From the NCBI GenBank assembly GCA_020440645.1, contig JAGRNR010000004.1, forward strand, positions 12,762 through 76,761: a DNA stretch of 64,000 bases, given 5' to 3'. The DNA is from a bacterium (GTDB lineage: Bacteria; 4484-113; JAFGCY01). The notes below the pieces were generated by a model. It was given only the letters and a program-made list of their open reading frames with translations. It was not told where the DNA came from and made no database searches. Each line of letters opens with the position of its first letter. Within the stretch, counting starts at the first letter, position 1. Below are positions 26,978-40,564 of the stretch, piece by piece. A program made the position numbers and the translations under genes.

Positions 26978-29794
26978 TCATTGTTTTTCCAAGGATCGTT
27001 CAAATCTCATTTCTGCCAATCTAAGGTCCTTCAAGATACACATTTCTTCATGCGGTATCAACTTCTGATTTATTTCTAGAATTGCAGCGATAATCTCTTT
27101 TCCGCAATTCTGAAGATCCTGTATTGAATTCGAGCTATCACAACGACAGATTTCTAATAGAATTTCATTTGCGGAATCGTTATTGAATCCTCCGCTGATT
27201 AATTTGGTACATGTATCAAGTCTGAGCAATTGATATATTGCATAATCCATGTTGTCAGTTATTGAAGTTTCACTTATTAATTTATGCATTTCTTCCAAAT
27301 CCAGATAAACGTCCTGAATAATGTTGCAACGACACAAATACATTGCAGCACTTATTTTATCCTCCCATTGCCTGTCTTCTAATACAGCATACGCAACATC
27401 CCGGAAATAATCTGTGGCTTTACTGATTTTATTATTTTCAAAATACATAGAACCTATAGCCGCTTTTGCAAAGAGCTCTGCATGCTTATTGTATACATCT
27501 TCAGAAAGTCTGGCTGAAGTTTGGAGATATGATATACCGCTCAGAAAATCACTTTCACTTATGAAAATTCCAAGATTATTCAATGCAAAGATTTGTCCAA
27601 ATAGGTCATCATTTCCCCTGGCATGTTCAATAGCCTTCTCCAGTTTGTCAAGAACACCATCTTGGTTTCCGCACTTCAACCGACAGATAGCATGATGTGT
27701 CAGAAGCTCTGTTAAGCCACTGTATTCATTAAGTTCATTACATTGATCGAGGATCTCACAATACATCTTTTCAGCCTCGCGAACATCTCCCATTCGAGAT
27801 GTAAGTACAGCAATTCTTGTTTTGATCCTCAACAAAAGATCCTTGTCGATTGGATTGCAAGCATCAAGTGCTATTTTGAGCAATTCCATAGCTTCTGGCA
27901 GTTCTGAAGGTTTTATGTACTTCGATGCAAAGTGAAGCAAGAACTTGGGTGAACGTGGCGGTGATTCTGGCGATAGTTTCCTGGCTTCATTCCAAAAAAC
28001 TGTGGCGGTCTGCGAAATTTTTTCGAACTCCTCATAGTTCCTTTGATGTGAGTATCGAGACATCAAACTACAAGCAATCCAGTGGGCTGCATGATAATTC
28101 CCATCTAGTGCATATAGCTCCATTGCCTTCAAAGACATCATATCAGCATAGGAACTCGACGCTTGAATTGGTAGAGTCTCATAATATGCAAGAAAACTAT
28201 TGATCATGACTGATTGCCATTTCTCATCTGACACGGTCCCCGCCCGCTTCTCCGCATGCTCGCTCAGCCACTTCAGGGCATTGCGGCGTTCGTCGAACGG
28301 CCATTCATCGAGTTGGCCACCCTCGAACTGCAGGCGCAGCACGTTACCGAGGTATTCCTCCACCAATGTGTGTTCCTCGTTGTCAGCGCCGAAGCTCTGC
28401 CGCACACGCTCGAAGATCAGGCGGTGGCGGAAGCTGTACAGATGCGAAGTCGCAAGCTTCTGCTCACGGGTTACGAGCTGGTGGATGCGTCCGAGGTCGC
28501 CCAGCATCACACTGGCACGGCCGCGCTGCATCCCAAGATGTTCCGCGGTGTATGTGATCAGTTCATCGAGGAACTTCTGCCCCATCACACTGCCCCACTG
28601 CAGCACCCGCAGGCGGTCGCCATCCAGCAGGCGCAGGCGGCGGTCGATCACCTCGCCCACGCGCAGCGGGATCCGTGACAGCTCGGCGTCACCAACTTTC
28701 AGTGCACCGTTGCCATCCAGCCAGCCCTCCTCCTCGACGAGCTTTGCATAGTTGACGGCGTAGAACGGATGCTCGCCGGCGCGCTGCACGATCCGCGAGA
28801 TCGTCTCATCGCTGGCACCGGGCAGGTGGTCTGAGATGATCCCCGCCATTGATTCGCGGGTGAGGTCCTGTCCCAGCTCGATGCGAGTCACGCACTGGCC
28901 ATCGGCATGCCGCAGCAGTCCGTGCTCCAGTTCCGCAGCCGTGCTTGACAACCTGCCGGGGTCATCCTGGCGGGCCGCCAGCTGGGCTGCCAGCTCATTG
29001 GAACGGATCGTGGAGATGCACAGAAGTTTCCAGCCGCGCCGCAGGCCGAGGTCCAGCATGCGCTGCAGGAAGCCGAGGCTGCGTGCATCGGCCCATTGCG
29101 CGTCGTCAACCACAAGCACCAGCGGCACTGTGGGCAGCTTACTGTCCGCCTCGTCGTTGAGGGTTGCCAGCATGCGGCTGATCATGTCCTCGGGCTTCTG
29201 GCCGTTGTAGATGTCCGTCGCGCCGGCCACGCTCGTGACGTCGCGCGCGCTCTTCAGCTCGCGCTGCCGGCGGCCCAGTTGCCAGATCGAGCGCAGCGCG
29301 GCATATACATCAATCAGCGGTCCGGCCGGGGAGAAACCGAGCCCGGCCTCCATCACGGAGCGGCCGGTCTCCAGCCAGGCATCCTTCACGAGCTTGGCGC
29401 GCATGATGCCGTCCAGATGCAGCACGAGCTGGTCCATTGCGTCGAGGAAGGGGGAGAATCCCTCCCTGTCATGTTCATTGCCGGGAGGGCATGTGATTGC
29501 CCACCACATGAAGGGCAGTGCGCCACGTGGCGGCCGGCCCTTCGGGAACTCGGGCCGCAGGCTGTCAATCGTGTTCGCTCCGAGGGCGAGGTCGGGCCAG
29601 TAGCCCTCACGCCCCATGTCCAGCTGCGGGTCGTAACGGGTTGTCAGGATCTGGTAGAGTTCCTGCACCAGCCGCGTCTTACCCATGCCGGGCTCACCAG
29701 ACACCCGGACATACTGGACGTTGCCCTGGCGTGATTTCTCCCACGCGGAAACCAGCAGCTCAAGCTCAGCATCTCGGCCCCGTAACGGATACAT
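26978..29794 (-). CDS. STAND-type NTPase (N-terminal AAA_16-like ATPase) with C-terminal TPR-like sensor repeats; C-terminal ~530 aa encoded by AT-rich DNA
   Basis: N-terminus LRGRDAELELLVSAWEKSRQGNVQYVRVSGEPGMGKTRLVQELYQIL (Walker A GEPGMGKT); Walker B-like LVLVVDDAQWAD; no HTH at C-terminus. Coordinates 26978-~28200 are ~35-40% GC, 28200-29794 ~65% GC. Confidence 0.75.
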   Translation of the reverse strand: MYPLRGRDAELELLVSAWEKSRQGNVQYVRVSGEPGMGKTRLVQELYQILTTRYDPQLDMGREGYWPDLALGANTIDSLRPEFPKGRPPRGALPFMWWAITCPPGNEHDREGFSPFLDAMDQLVLHLDGIMRAKLVKDAWLETGRSVMEAGLGFSPAGPLIDVYAALRSIWQLGRRQRELKSARDVTSVAGATDIYNGQKPEDMISRMLATLNDEADSKLPTVPLVLVVDDAQWADARSLGFLQRMLDLGLRRGWKLLCISTIRSNELAAQLAARQDDPGRLSSTAAELEHGLLRHADGQCVTRIELGQDLTRESMAGIISDHLPGASDETISRIVQRAGEHPFYAVNYAKLVEEEGWLDGNGALKVGDAELSRIPLRVGEVIDRRLRLLDGDRLRVLQWGSVMGQKFLDELITYTAEHLGMQRGRASVMLGDLGRIHQLVTREQKLATSHLYSFRHRLIFERVRQSFGADNEEHTLVEEYLGNVLRLQFEGGQLDEWPFDERRNALKWLSEHAEKRAGTVSDEKWQSVMINSFLAYYETLPIQASSSYADMMSLKAMELYALDGNYHAAHWIACSLMSRYSHQRNYEEFEKISQTATVFWNEARKLSPESPPRSPKFLLHFASKYIKPSELPEAMELLKIALDACNPIDKDLLLRIKTRIAVLTSRMGDVREAEKMYCEILDQCNELNEYSGLTELLTHHAICRLKCGNQDGVLDKLEKAIEHARGNDDLFGQIFALNNLGIFISESDFLSGISYLQTSARLSEDVYNKHAELFAKAAIGSMYFENNKISKATDYFRDVAYAVLEDRQWEDKISAAMYLCRCNIIQDVYLDLEEMHKLISETSITDNMDYAIYQLLRLDTCTKLISGGFNNDSANEILLEICRCDSSNSIQDLQNCGKEIIAAILEINQKLIPHEEMCILKDLRLAEMRFERSLEKQ

Positions 29795-30757: not shown

Positions 30758-33586
30758 TCAGGTTCCTTCGGCATTCCCCTGCTGTTCAGCAATCCGCCGC
30801 TGCAGGTCCTGCACTTCGCCCGGCAGTTCCTGCAGCAGCACGGCTGTCGGGTCCTGCATCCGCTCACGGCACTCTTCAAGCAGCCCGGAGCAGAAGCTGA
30901 GGATGTCCGGATCGCCAGCATCATTCCTTCCAATGAACCGCTCCAGCTGCGATGCCTGCTGCGCGTCATGTGAGCCGCCATGCAGCAGCAGCGAAGCCTC
31001 GATCCTGGCGATATCCATCTTGGCGAGGCTGCCTGGGTTGTCAACATCCAGACCGCGGAACCAGCCCGCCAGCTCTACGGCTCGGGAGTAGTTGCCAATG
31101 CTGAGCTGTGCGCGCATCAGGGTGATGAAGAAGCGCATCAGTCGCAGGTGCGCATTGCGCTCGATGGCAATTGTGTATGCCGTCTCCAGCCGCGAGCAGG
31201 CCTGTTCGTAGTCACCCTCTGAGAAGTCAATCGATCCGAGCGAGCAGAGGCTGAACAGCCTTGAGCTTTCATCTCCGACTTCCTCCGCCATGTGCAGGGC
31301 CCGTTGCGTGTACTCATATGCCTGCGGGATGTCATCGTGCTTGGAGTAATAGACGCCGATGTTTGACGTGATCTGCGTAGCGTGCAGCTGGTCGCCGCTG
31401 GCCCTCGCGCAGTCCAGTGCCTGCAGCAGCAGGCTGATGCCCTGCTCATCGCGCTTCTGCAGCAGGTTGCACAGCGCCAGGTACTGCAGCAGCGATGTCC
31501 GGCTGATGTTCGTGCGCTCGCTGAAACCCTCGCTGTCCAGCCGCAGGAGGATCTCCTCAGCCTCCTGCAAGCGCCCTAGCTGCATCAGATAGCTTGCCAG
31601 CAGCAGGTCGCACTTGGCTAGCTGCGGCTCGTCCTCCGTTTCCACGGCGAGCTCGATCGCCTGTTCCGCCAGTTCCACCGCACGTGGCAGGTCGCCGTCC
31701 AGCAGTGCCACGGCCGAGCGTGAGATCTGCAGGTATGTCGACTGTTCCGGCAGGCTGGGGTCCTGCTCCCGGGCCAGTTGCCAGAGTGCTTCAGCCTGTG
31801 ATTCAAGCGTATCCAGTTGGTCAGTATGCTGGCGCTGGCGCTGGATCTTCACGGATTCAGCTGCCAGCTCATGCGCCTTCCTGTACAGCCCGGCTTCCTT
31901 CATCAGCCGGGTCGCCCTGTCCGCAAGGTCCATACGTTCGCGATTGCCGATTGGAATGGTGCTGAAGTAGAGCAGGAAACTCTCTATCTCAGTACGTTTC
32001 CAGCCTGCAGTGTCCTGCTCGCGGCGGCGCTTCTGCCTGTCCGCCGCGTAGTCGCTGAGCCAGCGCAGGGCGCTGCGCTGCTCGTCCTGCGGCAGCTCCC
32101 CCAGCAGCTTCTCCTCCATGTACTCCCGCAGCAGCTCGCCGAGGCAGTCCCGTACAAGTCCGTGCTCCGGGTTGTCATCTCCGAAGCCCTCCGCCACCCG
32201 CTCGAACAGCAGGCGATGGGTGAAGCCATACAACGACCAGTCCAGCTGCCGCTGCTGTCGGTTCACCAGCTGGTGCACTTCCGTCAATTCAGTCAGCCAG
32301 GCGCTGGCCCGGATCGGCTTGATGTCCATCTCACGCGATACGAGGGCGATCAGCTCATCGAGGAAGCGCTGGCCCTGCACGCTGGCCCATTCCAGCACCC
32401 GGCGACGGTTGCCATCCAGCAGGCGCAGGCGGCGGTCGATCAGCTCCCGGATGCCCGCCGGAATGCGGGACAGTTCATCGCTGCCAACCGTCAGTGCCCC
32501 GTTGCTGTCAACCCAGCCTTCCTCCCGGACCAGCAGCGCATAGTTCACGGCATAGAAGGGATGGTTGCCGGCGCGGCTTGCGATGGCCTGAATTGTCTCG
32601 TCAGACGCATGCGGGATGTGGTCGGAGATGATGCTGTTGATGGCTGCCTGGTCCAGGTCCTGCGTGAGGTCAATCCGGCGCACGTTGGCTTCACCGGTAT
32701 GCCGGATCAAGCCCGTCTCCAGCTCGGCGGCCGTGGCAGCCAGCCGGTTCTCCCCGTCCTCTGCTGCCCGCAGCTGGCTGGCCAGTTCGTTGGAGCGGAT
32801 CGTGCTGATGCACAACAGGCTCCACTCCCGCTCCACCCCGAGTTCCAGCATCCGCTGCACGAAGCCGAGGCTGCGCGCGTCCGCCCACTGCGCATCGTCC
32901 AGCACCAGCACCAGCGGGACGGTCGGCAGCTTGTTGTCCGCCGGGTCATTCAGCGTGGACAGCAGGCGGCTGATCATGTCTTCGGGCTTCTGCCCATGGT
33001 AGATGTCCTTCCCGCCTGAAAGTTCCGTGATGCTGCGGCCTCCCTTCAGTTCACGCTGGCGCTTGCCGAGTTGCCAGACCGAGCGAAGCGCGGCGTACAC
33101 GTCCACCAGCGGACCGACGGGTGTGAAGCCCAGCCCGGCCTCGAGGAAACTGCGTCCGGCATCCAACCAGGCATCCTTCACAAGCTTGGCACGCATGATG
33201 CCGTCGAGGTGCAGTGAAAGCTGCTCCATCGCATCAAGGAAGGGGGCGAAACTGTCCGGCACATGCTCATTGCCCTGGCGGCAGACCACCGCCCACCACA
33301 TGAATGGCAATGGGATCTTCGGCGGACCTTCCACGGGGAAGCGCGGCCGCACGCTATCGAGCACACGTGCGCCGAGGAACAGGTCGGGCCAGTAGCCGTT
33401 GCCGCTTTCAACTGCCGCCGGGTCGTACTGCGTTGTCAGGATGCGGTACAGCTCCTGCACCAGCCGGGTTTTGCCCAGCCCAGGCTCGCCCGCAATCCGC
33501 ACGTAACGCACCTGGCCCTGGCGTGCCTCTTCCCATGCCTCAACCAGTAGGGCGAGCTCGGCGTCCCGTCCGTGCAGTGCGTGCAT
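30758..33586 (-). CDS. STAND-type NTPase (AAA_16-like) with TPR-like repeats; paralog of 26978-29794
   Basis: MHALHGRDAELALLVEAWEEARQGQVRYVRIAGEPGLGKTRLVQELYRIL; LVLVLDDAQWAD; alignable with the neighbour over the N-terminal ~530 aa; uniformly GC-rich; C-terminus lacks HTH. Confidence 0.75.
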   Translation of the reverse strand: MHALHGRDAELALLVEAWEEARQGQVRYVRIAGEPGLGKTRLVQELYRILTTQYDPAAVESGNGYWPDLFLGARVLDSVRPRFPVEGPPKIPLPFMWWAVVCRQGNEHVPDSFAPFLDAMEQLSLHLDGIMRAKLVKDAWLDAGRSFLEAGLGFTPVGPLVDVYAALRSVWQLGKRQRELKGGRSITELSGGKDIYHGQKPEDMISRLLSTLNDPADNKLPTVPLVLVLDDAQWADARSLGFVQRMLELGVEREWSLLCISTIRSNELASQLRAAEDGENRLAATAAELETGLIRHTGEANVRRIDLTQDLDQAAINSIISDHIPHASDETIQAIASRAGNHPFYAVNYALLVREEGWVDSNGALTVGSDELSRIPAGIRELIDRRLRLLDGNRRRVLEWASVQGQRFLDELIALVSREMDIKPIRASAWLTELTEVHQLVNRQQRQLDWSLYGFTHRLLFERVAEGFGDDNPEHGLVRDCLGELLREYMEEKLLGELPQDEQRSALRWLSDYAADRQKRRREQDTAGWKRTEIESFLLYFSTIPIGNRERMDLADRATRLMKEAGLYRKAHELAAESVKIQRQRQHTDQLDTLESQAEALWQLAREQDPSLPEQSTYLQISRSAVALLDGDLPRAVELAEQAIELAVETEDEPQLAKCDLLLASYLMQLGRLQEAEEILLRLDSEGFSERTNISRTSLLQYLALCNLLQKRDEQGISLLLQALDCARASGDQLHATQITSNIGVYYSKHDDIPQAYEYTQRALHMAEEVGDESSRLFSLCSLGSIDFSEGDYEQACSRLETAYTIAIERNAHLRLMRFFITLMRAQLSIGNYSRAVELAGWFRGLDVDNPGSLAKMDIARIEASLLLHGGSHDAQQASQLERFIGRNDAGDPDILSFCSGLLEECRERMQDPTAVLLQELPGEVQDLQRRIAEQQGNAEGT

Positions 33587-34856: not shown

Positions 34857-34937
34857 TCAGGTTGCTGGTATCTCCTGAACCCAGTATAGATCAGGGTCCA
34901 GCCGTCGTCGTGTACATGATTTTCGCGAATTTACAGG

Positions 34938-34985
34938 AAAATTTGTAAAATCACTTGCTTTCTACAAATAAATTTGTATAATCAC
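34938..34985 (+). promoter_or_regulatory. Candidate promoter/operator of the ArsR-family gene: direct repeats AAATTTGTA(A/T)AATCAC x2 (32 bp apart), 16-bp palindrome TACAAATAAATTTGTA, -35 TTGCTT (34955-60), 16-nt spacer, -10 TATAAT (34977-82)
   Basis: Read from the sequence in the AT-rich 34857-35014 divergent intergenic region. Repeats overlap the -35 and -10 elements, as in autoregulated repressor operators. GTG start 35015 preceded by GAGGAG. Confidence 0.45.
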
Positions 34986-35014
34986 AGTATCAGCTTCGAG
35001 GAGCGAGCGAAACG

Positions 35015-35617
35015 GTGAAGAAGGAACAGGTAGTCGGGAGCCTCGGTGAGGCAAGGGTACTGCTCAAGCCGCTGCGCATGGACATCATGCACCTGCTGGC
35101 GGAGCCGCACTCCTGCACCGAGATTGCAGGCAACCTGGGGCTGACGCCGCAGAAGGTGCACTACCACGTCAAGGTGCTGGAGAAGGCCGGGTTCGTGGAG
35201 CAGGTGGATGAGCGGCAGGCCCGTGGCCTGAAGGAAGCGATCTACCGGGTCACCGCCCAGAGCGTGTCCTTCGCGCCGGCGCTCGTGGCAGCCCTCGGAG
35301 GAAGGGAGAAGCTCAGGGACAACCTGAGCGTCGGATACATGATGGGTCTCGCGGATGAACTGGCACGTGATTCAAATCGCCTCGCGATGATGCGGGACGA
35401 GACCCCGACGCTCAACCTGAGTGCCCAGATCGAGCTGGCTGATGCCTCGCAGCGAGGTGAGTTCATGGCGGAATTGCAGCAGCTGATCCAGTTCCTCGCG
35501 GAGAAGTACGGAGCTGACGACGGAGTGCCGCGCGACGGTGCGGACATCTTCAAGCTGGTGCTGGCCTGCTACCGCAATCCGGACAGCACCGACGAGGGCG
35601 GGCCCTCGCCCAACTAA
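35015..35617 (+). CDS. ArsR/SmtB-family winged-helix transcriptional regulator with C-terminal extension
   Basis: HTH region LKPLRMDIMHLLAEPHSCTEIAGNLGLTPQKVHYHVKVLEKAGFV; typically found next to AHSA1/SRPBCC genes. Confidence 0.7.
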   Translation: MKKEQVVGSLGEARVLLKPLRMDIMHLLAEPHSCTEIAGNLGLTPQKVHYHVKVLEKAGFVEQVDERQARGLKEAIYRVTAQSVSFAPALVAALGGREKLRDNLSVGYMMGLADELARDSNRLAMMRDETPTLNLSAQIELADASQRGEFMAELQQLIQFLAEKYGADDGVPRDGADIFKLVLACYRNPDSTDEGGPSPN

Positions 35618-35678: not shown

Positions 35679-36197
35679 ATGAACGAGAGGTGTGACATGC
35701 AGGGATTCAAGCGGTGCGCCGGAATGCTGCGTACGAACATGGTTGTCAGGGCAGGCAAGCCACAGGTATATGCCGCGCTGACAGAACCAGCCAGGCTCAG
35801 GCAGTGGCTGTGCGAGGGAGCGGATGTGGAGCTCGATCGCGGGATCTACCGCCTGTGGGGGCGCGGCCTGGCGGGCAGCCCCGGTCAGTGGGCTGATGCC
35901 GTGGGACTCGTTGCCAGCCGCGCGCCTGAGCTGCTGGTACTGGGCCAGCGGTACGCAGGGGTGGAAGTTGAGCTCGAGTTCATCCTCAGCTCGACGATCG
36001 GCGGACTGAACATCCAGTTCAGCATGCGCGGGCTGGAAGAACTGCCGGATGCTGAACGAATCCGCCTGGCGGAAAGCTGGAGTGCGGCGCTGCTGAACCT
36101 GAGGGGCCAGCTCGAGAATGCCCGGCCGCTAGCGATGCCCCCGCTGGTGTCGGCGGCACTTGAGCAGGGAGGACGGACCCTGCTACGAAGCGTATAG
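35679..36197 (+). CDS. SRPBCC-superfamily protein (AHSA1/Activator-of-Hsp90-ATPase homolog-like, single domain)
   Basis: VVRAGKPQVYAALTEPARLRQWL…; start chosen at internal ATG (35679); upstream part of the ORF-track entry looks non-coding. Confidence 0.55.
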   Translation: MNERCDMQGFKRCAGMLRTNMVVRAGKPQVYAALTEPARLRQWLCEGADVELDRGIYRLWGRGLAGSPGQWADAVGLVASRAPELLVLGQRYAGVEVELEFILSSTIGGLNIQFSMRGLEELPDAERIRLAESWSAALLNLRGQLENARPLAMPPLVSAALEQGGRTLLRSV

Positions 36198-38069: not shown

Positions 38070-38165
38070 TACTTGGACAATGCAGCGGCTGGCTTGTGGA
38101 GATCACGGGCCAGCCGCTATCCTCATACTGCTTCGGGGGAAGCCAGGAATAACGGGAGGCGGGAA

Positions 38166-38954
38166 ATGTCAGATGCAACGGGCGGCGCACCGCAGGCGCC
38201 GCGTGGTAGTGGGGAGCACCCGATCTGCTGGGTGGAGATCCGCTCAACGGATCTCCAGAAGGCACATGATTTCTATGGCACTGTGTTCGGCTGGGAGCTG
38301 TCCGACTTTGGCGACACGTTCAAGGTGCACTATGCACCGGGACATCTCGGGATGGGCTTCAGCAAGGGCTGGCGCGATGAACTGCCAAACTCGCTGTTCT
38401 ACATCGCGGTGCCCGACATTGACGATGTTGTGGCGAAGGTCGTGGCGCGCGGCGGCGAACTGGTTGAGCCAAAGCAGCCGATCGGTCCAGACATGCCGAA
38501 CTCTGCGATTGTCAGGAATGCCCAGGGGGTGCACCTCGGGCTGTTTGACGGGGCCAAATCGCCCCAGCCCTATGTGCCGGCACCGTGGACGGCACCTGAA
38601 CCGGTTGAGCCGAACACCGTCTGCAGTGTGGAGATCCACGGAGGCACGGACCTCTCCGACGCTGAGAACTTCTACGGCGGGCTGTTCGGCTGGGGCACGG
38701 CGTCAATGGGACCGCAGTACATGATGTACGACCCCGGAGCCGGTGTCGGCGGAGTGTTCCAGGGACATACGCCGCAGGCCCCGGTGATGATCTACATCTA
38801 CGTGACGGACGTGATGGCGGCACTTGAGAAGATCGTTGCCAGCGGCGGCAAGCAGATCGGCGAGGCGGCGGCCATGCCCGGCATGGGGATGTTCGGCTAC
38901 TTCTCCGATCCAAATGGAGTGGTGCTGGGCCTGATCGGCCCGGCCGGAAACTGA
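38166..38954 (+). CDS. Tandem VOC-family (glyoxalase/bleomycin-resistance/dioxygenase fold) protein, cytoplasmic
   Basis: Two VOC modules: ICWVEIRSTDLQKAHDFYGTVFGWEL… and VCSVEIHGGTDLSDAENFYGGLFGWGT…; likely start at MSDATGG (38166). Confidence 0.65.
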   Translation: MSDATGGAPQAPRGSGEHPICWVEIRSTDLQKAHDFYGTVFGWELSDFGDTFKVHYAPGHLGMGFSKGWRDELPNSLFYIAVPDIDDVVAKVVARGGELVEPKQPIGPDMPNSAIVRNAQGVHLGLFDGAKSPQPYVPAPWTAPEPVEPNTVCSVEIHGGTDLSDAENFYGGLFGWGTASMGPQYMMYDPGAGVGGVFQGHTPQAPVMIYIYVTDVMAALEKIVASGGKQIGEAAAMPGMGMFGYFSDPNGVVLGLIGPAGN

Positions 38955-39011: not shown

Positions 39012-39941
39012 ATGCGCAGGATTGCAACAGCGCTTATCACAGCAACTGCCGCCACAATGGCGATGCTTGGCAATGCCGAGGCCCGCGGCTTCGGTGACAA
39101 CGACACCGCGAAGTACTTCGGCAGTGGTGAGCAGGTCGTCGCCGGGATGCAGATGGAGATGGAAATGACCAAGGGCACAGCACAGATGCCGGTCGGCACC
39201 GGTGAGCACTGGGTCGCCTGGCTGGAGTTCACCACTGCTGACATTGATGCCACCAGTGCATTCATGTCTACGGTGTTCGGCTGGCAGGTGATGCCTTTCA
39301 TGGATGGCTACAGCATCTGGATGCCGGACATGGAGAAGGGTGTGCTGGGTTGCGGCCTGAGCCAGAATCCGGAGATGCCGCAGCAGACGGCCTACTACCT
39401 CTATACGCCGGACATCGACGCCAAGCTGGCTGATGTGGAGGCGATGGGCGGCAGCACCTTCATGGAGAAGATGCCGATCGCACCGGACATGCCGAACATC
39501 GCGATGTTCATGGATGCCAGCGGCGTGATCGTCGGCCTGATCGACCAGGCCCTACCGGCTGAGGACGTTGCCAACCCGGTTGGGCCCGGTGCCAGCGGCG
39601 TGCCCGGCCAGTTCTGCGGCCTCGAGATCTACAGTGGCGATGCCTCAGTGACAACGAAGTTCTACGGCAAGCTGTTCGGCTGGGGCATCAAGCCCGGCAT
39701 GGAGGGCTACCTCGACTTCCACCCCGGCAGCGGAATTTCCGGCGTGTTCCAGGGCCATACGCCGGATGCAAAGGTGATGGCTTACATCTGGAGCGATGAC
39801 GTGCAGGCCACGCTGGATGCAGTCACCGCTGCCGGCGGGACCACCTTCGGCGATGCGATGGGGATGGAGGACATTGCCACCTTCGGCTACTTCGTGGCCC
39901 CCGGTGGCCTGATGCTCGGCATCATGGGGCCAGCCAGCTAG
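39012..39941 (+). CDS. Tandem VOC-family protein with signal peptide (secreted paralog of 38166-38954)
   Basis: Signal peptide MRRIATALITATAATMAMLGNAEA; HWVAWLEFTTADIDATSAFMSTVFGWQV… and FCGLEIYSGDASVTTKFYGKLFGWGI…; C-terminal GVFQGHTPDAKVMAYIW parallels GVFQGHTPQAPVMIYIY in the paralog. Confidence 0.65.
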   Translation: MRRIATALITATAATMAMLGNAEARGFGDNDTAKYFGSGEQVVAGMQMEMEMTKGTAQMPVGTGEHWVAWLEFTTADIDATSAFMSTVFGWQVMPFMDGYSIWMPDMEKGVLGCGLSQNPEMPQQTAYYLYTPDIDAKLADVEAMGGSTFMEKMPIAPDMPNIAMFMDASGVIVGLIDQALPAEDVANPVGPGASGVPGQFCGLEIYSGDASVTTKFYGKLFGWGIKPGMEGYLDFHPGSGISGVFQGHTPDAKVMAYIWSDDVQATLDAVTAAGGTTFGDAMGMEDIATFGYFVAPGGLMLGIMGPAS

Positions 39942-40564
39942 TCCACACCCCGCTCCAGTTCAGAGATCATCCAGTCCGCCAGGTCAGTGTTGCCAAGTGC
40001 AGCCTGCCTGGCGGCTACGTTTCTGATGTCCTCTGCATTCTTATTCTGGTTGAGCTTGAGCTTGCCGTCCAGCCTGTCAACGAGCATCCTGAAGGCCACG
40101 ATGCCACGCAGCAGGCCATCGCGTTTACGCTCATCCAGCATTGCCATCCGCCAGCCGCTGTCGCCCGGTTCCATGGCTTCAACAAGTCGCTCGATTGCCA
40201 GCGCGCTGTCTGCCCCATCCGCATACTTCACCGGCTTGCCGGCGGCATGCACTGCGATGTAGTTCCAGGTCGGCACCTGGCCCTCACTGGCATAGTCGGA
40301 AGGTGAGACATAGCCATGCGGGCCACTGAAAACGACCAGTGCTTCCCGCTCACCATCAAACGAATCATGCAATGGGTTAGCACGGGCCAGGTGTGCCACG
40401 AATTCGATGGATCCGTCGGGCAGTTCATCGACGAGGAAGGGTAGGTGTACGCCCTGCATCCGGCCGTCACGGTCGCTCATGCTGAGCACGCCGAAGGGAT
40501 ATTCGCGGATCAGCGCGATGATGCGCTGCCTGTCGGAGAGCCTGTAGTAGTCGGGCGACCACAT
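39938..40564 (-). CDS. PaiB-family FMN-binding negative transcriptional regulator-like protein (PNPOx-like fold)
   Basis: N-terminus MWSPDYYRLSDRQRIIALIREYPFGVLS…VHLPFLVDE…GPHGYVSPSDY…VPTWNYIAVHAAG matches the PaiB pattern. Its stop overlaps the stop of the convergent VOC gene (shared CTAG at 39938-39941). Confidence 0.65.
   Translation of the reverse strand: MWSPDYYRLSDRQRIIALIREYPFGVLSMSDRDGRMQGVHLPFLVDELPDGSIEFVAHLARANPLHDSFDGEREALVVFSGPHGYVSPSDYASEGQVPTWNYIAVHAAGKPVKYADGADSALAIERLVEAMEPGDSGWRMAMLDERKRDGLLRGIVAFRMLVDRLDGKLKLNQNKNAEDIRNVAARQAALGNTDLADWMISELERGVD

Follow-up and report, generated by a model that had tools for sequence, protein, structure and literature searches.

On contig JAGRNR010000004.1 (GenBank assembly GCA_020440645.1), a stretch of 64,000 nucleotides, hereafter the window, carries a row of genes on one strand that opens with a regulator of 200 amino acids (aa) with an ArsR-type winged helix and continues with three genes for AHSA1/SRPBCC proteins and two for proteins of the VOC/glyoxalase fold (Table 1). 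A membrane-protein gene diverges from the regulator gene and a PaiB-like gene converges on the last VOC gene. The intergenic region in front of the regulator gene (34857-35014), for which a preliminary description had proposed an operator and promoter of an autoregulated ArsR-family gene, is AT-rich, with 34% guanine plus cytosine (GC) at 34900-34999 versus 62% for the window. Its segment 34930-34990 is probably a self-repressed sigma-70-type promoter with two predicted sites, O1 and O2, for the regulator of the presumed small, stress-type operon itself.

Table 1. Features of the regulator locus, in window coordinates.
Feature	Position	Strand	Remarks
Divergent membrane-protein gene, 285 aa	33999..34856	-	
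O1, auxiliary operator (predicted)	34932..34947		TACAGG-AAAA-TTTGTA (TACA-N8-TGTA); about -57 to -42 from the predicted transcription start site
Two 23-nt direct-repeat units	34932..34985 (34932-54, 34963-85)	+	seen in part (16-nt core) in the preliminary description
-35 hexamer TTGCTT	34955..34960	+	TTGC invariant in the UBP7 clade
O2, main operator (predicted)	34963..34978		TACAAA-TAAA-TTTGTA; fills the -35/-10 spacer; last two bases are the first two of the -10
-10 hexamer TATAAT	34977..34982	+	6/6 invariant in the UBP7 clade
Predicted transcription start site, an A	34989	+	placed by position rule, 7 nt after the -10; TATC at 34988-91 invariant in the UBP7 clade
Shine-Dalgarno sequence GAGGAG	34998..35003	+	11 nt before the GTG start
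Regulator gene, 200 aa, GTG start	35015..35617	+	N-terminal ArsR-type winged helix and C-terminal region of about 110 aa
Single-domain AHSA1/SRPBCC gene	35697..36197	+	present only in the lineage of the window and L007
Two-domain AHSA1/SRPBCC gene, 303 aa	36259..37170	+	
Two-domain AHSA1/SRPBCC gene, 288 aa	37203..38069	+	nearest solved relative CalU16
VOC/glyoxalase-fold gene	38073..38954	+	nearest solved relative Rv0577
Second VOC-fold gene	39012..39941	+	40% identical to the first VOC gene; probably the last gene of the unit
PaiB-like gene	39938..40564	-	convergent

The pattern AAATTTGTA(A/T)AATCAC has exactly two matches in the 64 kb (34939-34954 and 34970-34985), where 0.04 are expected and none of 100 shuffles gave two, and a repeat finder extends these matches to two 23-nt units, TACAGGAAAATTTGTAAAATCAC and TACAAATAAATTTGTATAATCAC, that are 83% identical and spaced by 31 bp. 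Each unit also contains an inverted repeat, as TACA-N8-TGTA occurs at only two sites in the window, O1 and O2, versus 0.07 expected. O2, TACAAATAAATTTGTA, is a 6-N4-6 palindrome in which the arms TACAAA and TTTGTA flank an asymmetric TAAA center. The direct repeat exists because O1 and O2 have one and the same right arm. The -35 hexamer TTGCTT, which matches TTGACA at three of six positions, is separated from TATAAT by a 16-nt spacer, and the upstream repeat copy ends at 34954, where it abuts the -35 hexamer. The preliminary description had located TATAAT (34977-82), TTGCTT (34955-60) and the palindrome (34963-34978) correctly and had recognized two real repeat copies. Its first copy has to be moved rightward by one base, which makes the spacing 31 bp instead of 32 bp; the repeat is 23 nt and thus longer than the 16 nt described, and the palindrome is not a perfect 16-mer. 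Of the proposed overlap of the repeats with both promoter hexamers, the part that holds is the overlap of O2 with the -10. That the upstream unit is an inverted repeat as well had been missed.

Beyond O1 and O2 the window contains no further operator copies. Compared with Rfam at E values up to 1, the segment 34700-35200 gave no match, and an RNA element is therefore unlikely. An extended -10 was considered and rejected, as the TG directly abuts TATAAT and the required spacer base is missing. Likewise a second promoter that would use the TAAAAT of the O1 unit was not adopted, since the hexamers at the right distance, TCGCGA and TTCGCG, match TTGACA at three of six positions and are unconserved in three other loci of the collection (L003, L008 and L009).

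Which parts of this region are maintained by selection? The window was aligned with six further loci of a clade of the candidate phylum UBP7 (seven sequences, regulators 80-91% identical), and the four-fold degenerate sites of the adjacent gene, of which 22 of 74 are invariant, served as near-neutral benchmark. In O1 all eight bases of the arms TACA and TGTA are invariant but only two of the eight central bases, and in O2 all twelve bases of the arms TACAAA and TTTGTA as compared with one of four in the center, so that the combined arms are invariant at 20 of 20 positions versus three of 12 for the centers, which is about the neutral rate. In the O1 unit the invariance covers TACA and TGTAAAA. 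The distance between O1 and O2 is 31 bp in all seven sequences, and the promoter block as a whole is conserved, whereas the DNA upstream of 34919 is unalignable across the clade (none of 62 columns invariant). Invariant arms around a drifting center are the expected signature of a site for a symmetric dimer. A closely related locus, L007, lies at 641625-648224 of CP060262.1, a complete chromosome from a metagenome-assembled genome of candidate phylum UBP7 that is labelled Planctomycetales. It is about 96% identical to the window, with 260 ungapped mismatches in 6.6 kb (about 4%) and an identical regulator protein, and in the 120 nt before the start codon it differs by at least three substitutions, for example C to A at 34962, none of which falls in an operator arm.

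The association extends far beyond this clade. With the family alignment as query, a scan that covered one genome per species yielded 80 loci, with regulators 38-48% identical to the query, in several classes of Chloroflexota and in Acidobacteriota, Candidatus Eisenbacteria, Dormiibacterota, Fraserbacteria, Acetothermia, Binatia and some Actinomycetota. Of 82 non-redundant loci, 65 have the pattern TACAAA-N(3-5)-TTTGTA, with up to two mismatches, in the 150 nt upstream of the regulator gene; when these upstream segments were shuffled with their dinucleotides preserved, 4.5 loci on average and at most 10 had it, and the flanking parts of the loci contain 0.01 palindromes per 150 nt (31 matches in 462 kb). 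The promoter architecture was read from 58 promoters anchored on the palindrome. The palindrome fills the spacer; in 53 of the promoters a -10-like hexamer TAnnnT begins at its last two bases, and 31 have a perfect TTGACA at a spacing of 16-18 nt followed by TA(T/C)AAT. The consensus of the family operator is a 20-bp palindrome, TGTACAAA-N4-TTTGTACA, and many Anaerolineae show a mirror-image change in both arms, TGTAAAAA...TTTTTACA. The arm states are CG in 30 loci, AT in 12, CT in 12 and AG in three, and such symmetric changes fit a two-fold symmetric dimer. In 72 of 86 loci the regulator gene is followed by an AHSA1/SRPBCC gene of the same orientation. Of the 58 anchored loci, 27 have a third half-site, TTT(G/T)TAC, at a distance of exactly 12 nt past the palindrome, over the expected transcription start; an upstream auxiliary site at -31 is confined to the UBP7 clade.

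In two loci of the family, L023 and L025, a TATAAT -10-like hexamer stands exactly 7 nt before the ATG and a ribosome-binding site is missing, suggesting that these homologues are probably translated from leaderless mRNA, a layout that makes sense only if the hexamer is a real -10. In the upstream 110 nt of three actinobacterial loci (L062, L069 and L070, Gaiellales/Actinomycetes) TTCAA/TTGAA half-sites replace TACAA/TTGTA, as in TCCAAATCTGTTTGAA, and the recognition helix of these proteins opens with QR or PR, not QK. This may be a specificity switch, seen in three related sequences only. Recognition-helix residue 45, which is P or A, co-varies with the C/G or A/T state of the arms as a trend only, and this trend is confounded by phylogeny.

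What kind of protein would read such a site? The N-terminus of the regulator matches its homologues as well as PF12840 (HTH_20, 50.9 bits, cut-off 27) and PF01022 (HTH_5, 28.4 bits, cut-off 22), as found for winged-helix proteins of the ArsR/SmtB type. The recognition helix, TPQK(V/I)(H/Y)YH(V/I)K, hardly varies within the family, and its residues Q46, Y50 and H51 are invariant. The C-terminal 110 or so residues have no Pfam match, and with 200 aa the protein exceeds canonical ArsR/SmtB proteins, which are about 100-125 aa long and dimerize through alpha1 and alpha5. Scores for the NCBIfam models NF033788 (HTH_metalloreg, 32.5 bits, cut-off 55) and NF053602 (Phr heat-shock regulator, 18.2 bits, cut-off 320) stay below their thresholds, and the metal-ligand motifs ELCV(C/G)D in alpha3 and DxHx10HxxE in alpha5 are absent from the regulator. 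The alpha3 equivalent is PHSCTEI, whose one Cys, residue 34, several homologues lack, and no His follows residue 51, which means that there is no alpha5 metal site. In the AlphaFold model (mean predicted local distance difference test score, pLDDT, 77) residues 1-90 are confident and long helices follow the wing at 96-125 and 146-165, most of the C-terminal half having a pLDDT of about 60-67. The nearest solved relatives by sequence are PH1932 (1uly) and Phr of P. furiosus (2p4w), in the winged helix only (residues 2-82; E = 1.9e-4). The top Foldseek matches are PH1932 (1uly, 2cwe), Kfla_6221 (4g6q) and Phr (2p4w), over 170-190 columns, with TM-scores of 0.33-0.47 that were obtained with the low-confidence C-terminal model, and the fold of canonical ArsR, CzrA, SmtB, HlyU and CadC matches the winged helix only. 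The best reading is that of an ArsR-type protein, perhaps PH1932/Phr-like, devoid of metal-binding sites.

Clustering at 90% identity divides the family of this regulator into at least 850 groups, nearly all of which come from uncultured members of the Chloroflexota, the Acidobacteriota and candidate phyla. Its best 120 members are about 190-220 aa long and carry only generic names, and among these best 120 matches of a profile search, a scope that leaves out more distant relatives, no fusion of regulator and AHSA1 protein occurs. No paralogue of the regulator is encoded in the window, and no studied member of the subfamily of about 200 aa was found. At least 90% of the family members have Cys185 (window 35567-35569), which is part of a C-terminal LACY motif, and Cys34 (window 35114-35116), located in the helix that precedes the recognition helix, is common as well; thiol-based sensing through these cysteines is conceivable.

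How could the operon control itself? In the proposed mechanism TTGCTT and TATAAT, 16 nt apart, would form a promoter that starts transcription near 34989 and drives a unit of six genes. A dimer of the 200-aa winged-helix protein would recognize O2 (TACAAA-N4-TTTGTA), and as O2 fills the spacer and overlaps the -10, the bound repressor would exclude RNA polymerase, whereby the unit would repress itself. Repression is proposed because a site over the spacer and the -10 of a near-consensus promoter constitutes the classical geometry of occlusion. O1 would be a weaker copy (TACAgg-N4-TTTGTA) on the same face of the helix, 31 bp or about three helical turns upstream, and it probably holds a second dimer that stabilizes the first. 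It may also block upstream contacts of the polymerase, which would matter because the -35 of the clade is weak. Release is expected to depend on a non-metal signal, in view of the lack of metal ligands, the precedent of Rv2034 discussed below and the kind of genes under control. The relation of the SRPBCC proteins to CalU16 and of the VOC proteins to Rv0577 suggests a hydrophobic or electrophilic compound. The sequence features on which this mechanism builds are under purifying selection and are linked throughout the family to the regulator and AHSA1 genes, and the inverted repeat overlaps the core promoter of the regulator's own gene and is conserved among orthologues. The comparative evidence thereby lends strong support to the operator and promoter for autoregulation that the preliminary description had suggested for the ArsR-like gene.

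Several observations weigh against this mechanism. The -35 TTGCTT agrees with the consensus at only three of six positions, and for this reason a consensus promoter scan did not call the promoter at 34955-34982. O1 fits the family consensus only in TACA and TTTGTA and could be an AT-rich upstream promoter element or the relic of a duplication. The search for sites covered 64 kb of a 4.1-Mb genome, and the low confidence of the C-terminal model makes any mode of dimerization tentative. Binding by the regulator, the direction of its effect, cooperativity between O1 and O2, the transcription start, the extent of the operon and the inducer are moreover all inferred from sequence. Finally, the core palindrome is not exclusive to the regulator family. 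In a reverse test a metagenome collection was scanned with the 19-base pattern TTGACA-N(1-3)-GTACAAA-N4-TTTGTA, which gave 94 matches in 92 contigs. In only 15 cases is a member of the family encoded directly downstream, its start codon 26-40 nt past the palindrome, and the other 79 matches lie elsewhere, mostly in two AT-rich high-copy repeats and otherwise in small families and singletons.

Grouped by their flanks, the matches form 33 families, of which two carry the regulator, two are the high-copy repeats (32 and 11 members), six are small and 23 are singletons. Composition separates them further: of the 23 matches whose contigs have 50% GC or more, 15 are promoters of the regulator family, as compared with none of 69 in AT-rich contigs. 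The only other bacterial gene to recur behind the motif is an open reading frame of 111 aa, seen in two contigs. In GC-rich bacterial contexts the core palindrome thus mostly marks the regulator family. The larger repeat (L088, L090, L093, L094, L101, L108, L111, L141 and others) has 35-41% GC and mostly reads TTGTTGACAGCAGTACAAAATATTTTGTAGCTCAACA...CCATGGCAAC; only short open reading frames or none follow it, no homologue of the regulator is encoded downstream, and the core palindrome is apparently shared by chance. Several of its samples are presumably termite-gut metagenomes, in which case the repeat could be host or other eukaryotic DNA. The second repeat, of the same GC range and likewise with no homologue of the regulator behind it, reads TACTTGACATTTGTACAAAGTTATTTGTAAATCCCACCAGGGGTTCAAAAGATATAGAGCGGACA and is found in 11 copies, mostly in sample Ga0224511 (L091, L098, L099, L103, L105, L113, L114, L130, L140 and L160), among low-complexity open reading frames; L160 has two copies, 314 bp apart. 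Ten copies of the two repeats were searched against Rfam, with no match.

It could be imagined that only O2 is an operator and that O1 is either an AT-rich element of the UP (upstream promoter) type or a tandem copy of the O2/-10 segment that is in decay. The left arm of O1 fits the family half-site only in TACA, with two mismatches, the duplication of the entire 23-nt unit including a -10-like TAAAAT suggests such an origin, and outside the UBP7 clade no upstream site is found, 27 of 58 loci having the downstream half-site 12 nt after the palindrome instead. Yet it is TACA and TGTAAAA that are invariant in O1 in the seven clade sequences, whereas the A/T-rich center needed by an UP element varies (two of eight positions invariant), and the 31-bp register of O1 and O2 never changes in the clade; a single operator is therefore regarded as unlikely. 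The reading that builds on the direct repeats of the preliminary description, namely that the protein reads the 16-nt direct repeats head-to-tail and that the palindrome is incidental, has in its favor that the direct repeat is statistically real and that a third half-site in direct orientation, TTTGTAC, stands 18 nt (start to start) after the right arm in 27 of 58 loci of other phyla. The unit conserved throughout the family is, however, the inverted repeat with its symmetric arm changes, and the direct-repeat core consists mostly of the shared right arm, the ATCAC that follows it being unconserved even within the clade. The ArsR-type winged-helix proteins solved to date are moreover two-fold symmetric dimers, and head-to-tail recognition is improbable.

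If the palindrome is an operator, does the adjacent gene provide the protein that binds it, and does binding repress? A different, shared or global regulator could be considered, as the core GTACAAA-N4-TTTGTA is found in other metagenome contexts. But in several phyla the palindrome goes with one and the same gene family and has a fixed position in the promoter, there are no further copies in the 64 kb and just the 31 matches in the 462 kb of flanks, and no second bacterial gene family recurs behind the motif except the 111-aa open reading frame already mentioned. In L062, L069 and L070, moreover, the half-site and the start of the recognition helix (QK to QR or PR) are altered together, and a shared regulator seems very improbable. 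Only slightly less so is a regulator that activates the promoter, or activates and represses it, either in the manner of MerR from the spacer or by recruiting polymerase from O1. The -35 of the UBP7 clade is weak (three of six), O1 is located where class I activators bind, and Rv2034 was reported to activate some of its targets (PMC3338718); on the other hand, the spacer has the optimal length of 16-17 nt, unlike that of MerR-type promoters, most homologous promoters have a perfect TTGACA and TAYAAT and need no activator, and a site over spacer and -10 classically occludes the polymerase. That there is no operator at all and that the conservation reflects promoter elements only is hardly credible: the -35 and the -10 do lie within the conserved block, but the TACAAA arm is invariant although it stands in the spacer, for which sigma-70 promoters require no particular sequence, the arms co-vary symmetrically, and O1 is conserved outside the core promoter. 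A self-repressed promoter with O2 as main and O1 as auxiliary operator therefore remains the preferred interpretation.

How far would this control reach? Between 35500 and 39941 no terminator and no promoter-like site was found on the plus strand, and for this reason a single transcription unit of six genes, regulator-AHSA1(x3)-VOC(x2), is plausible. The co-control of downstream genes envisaged in the preliminary description would accordingly hold for the AHSA1 and VOC genes, whose co-transcription is plausible, but not for the PaiB-like gene, which is convergent on the opposite strand and hence outside the unit. In L001, L002, L003, L005, L008 and L009 an AHSA1 gene of 299-303 aa directly follows the regulator gene. 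The first VOC gene, listed as an open reading frame of 293 aa with a TTG start, probably starts at the ATG at 38166, which would give 262 aa as in its orthologues (261-262 aa).

The divergent membrane-protein gene, which has no Pfam or NCBIfam match, had also been thought to be co-controlled, and this part of the earlier proposal finds no support. The gene stands beside the regulator gene only in the window and L007, L003/L004, L008 and L009, and the loci that lack it (L001/L010 and L005/L006) keep O1 and O2 unchanged. A block CTCCTGAACCCAGTATAGATCAGGG (34873-97), whose conservation is restricted to loci with the divergent gene, contains on the minus strand a TATACT -10-like element (34886-91) followed by a GGAG ribosome-binding site; it is probably the promoter and leader of this gene. 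O1 lies about 40 bp beyond the TATACT and does not overlap it. A minus-strand promoter for the divergent gene that overlaps O1 or O2 was sought, and the only conserved candidate was this TATACT, outside both sites. In L001 (2627-2794) and L005 (661-828), both devoid of the divergent gene, a plus-strand open reading frame of 55 aa is called upstream of the promoter. Elsewhere in the window, the 938-aa AAA_16+TPR gene at 26978-29794 (minus strand) and the 942-aa gene at 30758-33586 are tandem paralogues, with 49% identity over residues 1-810. The 3' 1.2 kb of the 938-aa gene, especially 27000-28200, have 34-43% GC versus 62% for the window while the frame stays open, and it looks like a compositional chimera within one gene.

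How does this locus compare with known systems? PH1932, Kfla_6221 and Phr share with the regulator a length of about 170-200 aa and the arrangement of an N-terminal ArsR-type winged helix and a C-terminal domain. The sequence similarity of PH1932 and Phr, both archaeal, is limited to the winged helix, and none of the three is reported with AHSA1 partners. Phr binds a palindromic site at its own promoter. Canonical ArsR/SmtB proteins (CadC, CzrA, SmtB) have the winged-helix fold in common with the regulator, and their 12-2-12 operators are AT-rich imperfect palindromes that overlap the regulator's own promoter, as here; the regulator differs in lacking the alpha3 CxC and the alpha5 site and in being twice as long.

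The only analogue found to have been studied by experiment is Rv2034 of Mycobacterium tuberculosis, an ArsR-like autorepressor with the binding site CCGTAAGT-N4-ACTTACGG that does not respond to seven metals and whose gene is transcribed together with that of the START protein Rv2035 (PMC3338718). In Rv2034-Rv2035-Rv2036 as in the window an ArsR-like gene is the first of an operon with a START/AHSA1-type gene, and the palindrome has a 4-bp center. Compared by description and not by sequence, Rv2034 is a short canonical ArsR-type protein with a different half-site, while the protein here has 200 aa with a C-terminal region, and the locus has two sites 31 bp apart and VOC genes. More generally, Makarova, Wolf and Koonin (2009) predicted ArsR-COG3832 (Aha1/AHSA1) as a widespread two-gene module in which metal motifs are missing, and they proposed a mobile stress or antibiotic-resistance module as more likely than a toxin-antitoxin system (PMC2701414). 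The window conforms to this description in that the AHSA1 gene is adjacent on the same strand and the regulator has no metal-binding motifs, and an ArsR-like helix-turn-helix gene beside an AHSA1/START gene is the pairing found in 72 of 86 loci here; unlike the present analysis, the 2009 work gave the gene pair with no operator or promoter, and the unit here has six genes. A further parallel is Rv0576, in which a DNA-binding domain, a four-helix bundle and a START domain are combined and which is encoded beside TB27.3/CFP32 (Rv0577) (review, PMC13525633). DNA-binding, START and VOC functions are linked in both cases, Rv0577 being the nearest solved relative of the first VOC protein; by description, DNA-binding and START parts are fused there and encoded by separate genes here.

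The locus would thus work like the ArsR-COG3832 and Rv2034 systems, in a different, longer, presumably PH1932-like subfamily, as an ordinary self-repression switch. It may be speculated further, and it is clearly doubtful, that promoter, operator, regulator and AHSA1 gene travel between phyla as one self-contained cassette, whose AT-rich operator of 20 bp is retained even in hosts of more than 60% GC. In such a cassette the AHSA1/SRPBCC partner or Cys185 would sense a hydrophobic or electrophilic toxin and the signal would be passed on by protein-protein contact, similar to a partner switch or an antitoxin and unlike the direct ligand binding of classical ArsR proteins.

Literature searches with the operator sequence returned only Gateway attB primers and unrelated papers, and a search for HTH_20/PF12840 together with autoregulation returned nothing, suggesting that the family-wide operator appears to be undescribed in the searchable literature. 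The pair of ArsR and AHSA1 genes has been known since 2009 and is among the commonest two-gene modules of bacteria, still with no established function. For the candidate phylum UBP7, one well-supported example of a sigma-70-type promoter is gained. The most useful product would be the family-wide 20-bp operator for a widespread and unstudied family of regulators, as its fixed position in the promoter offers an experimental handle for binding assays, for reporters in inducer screens and for searches of the regulon.

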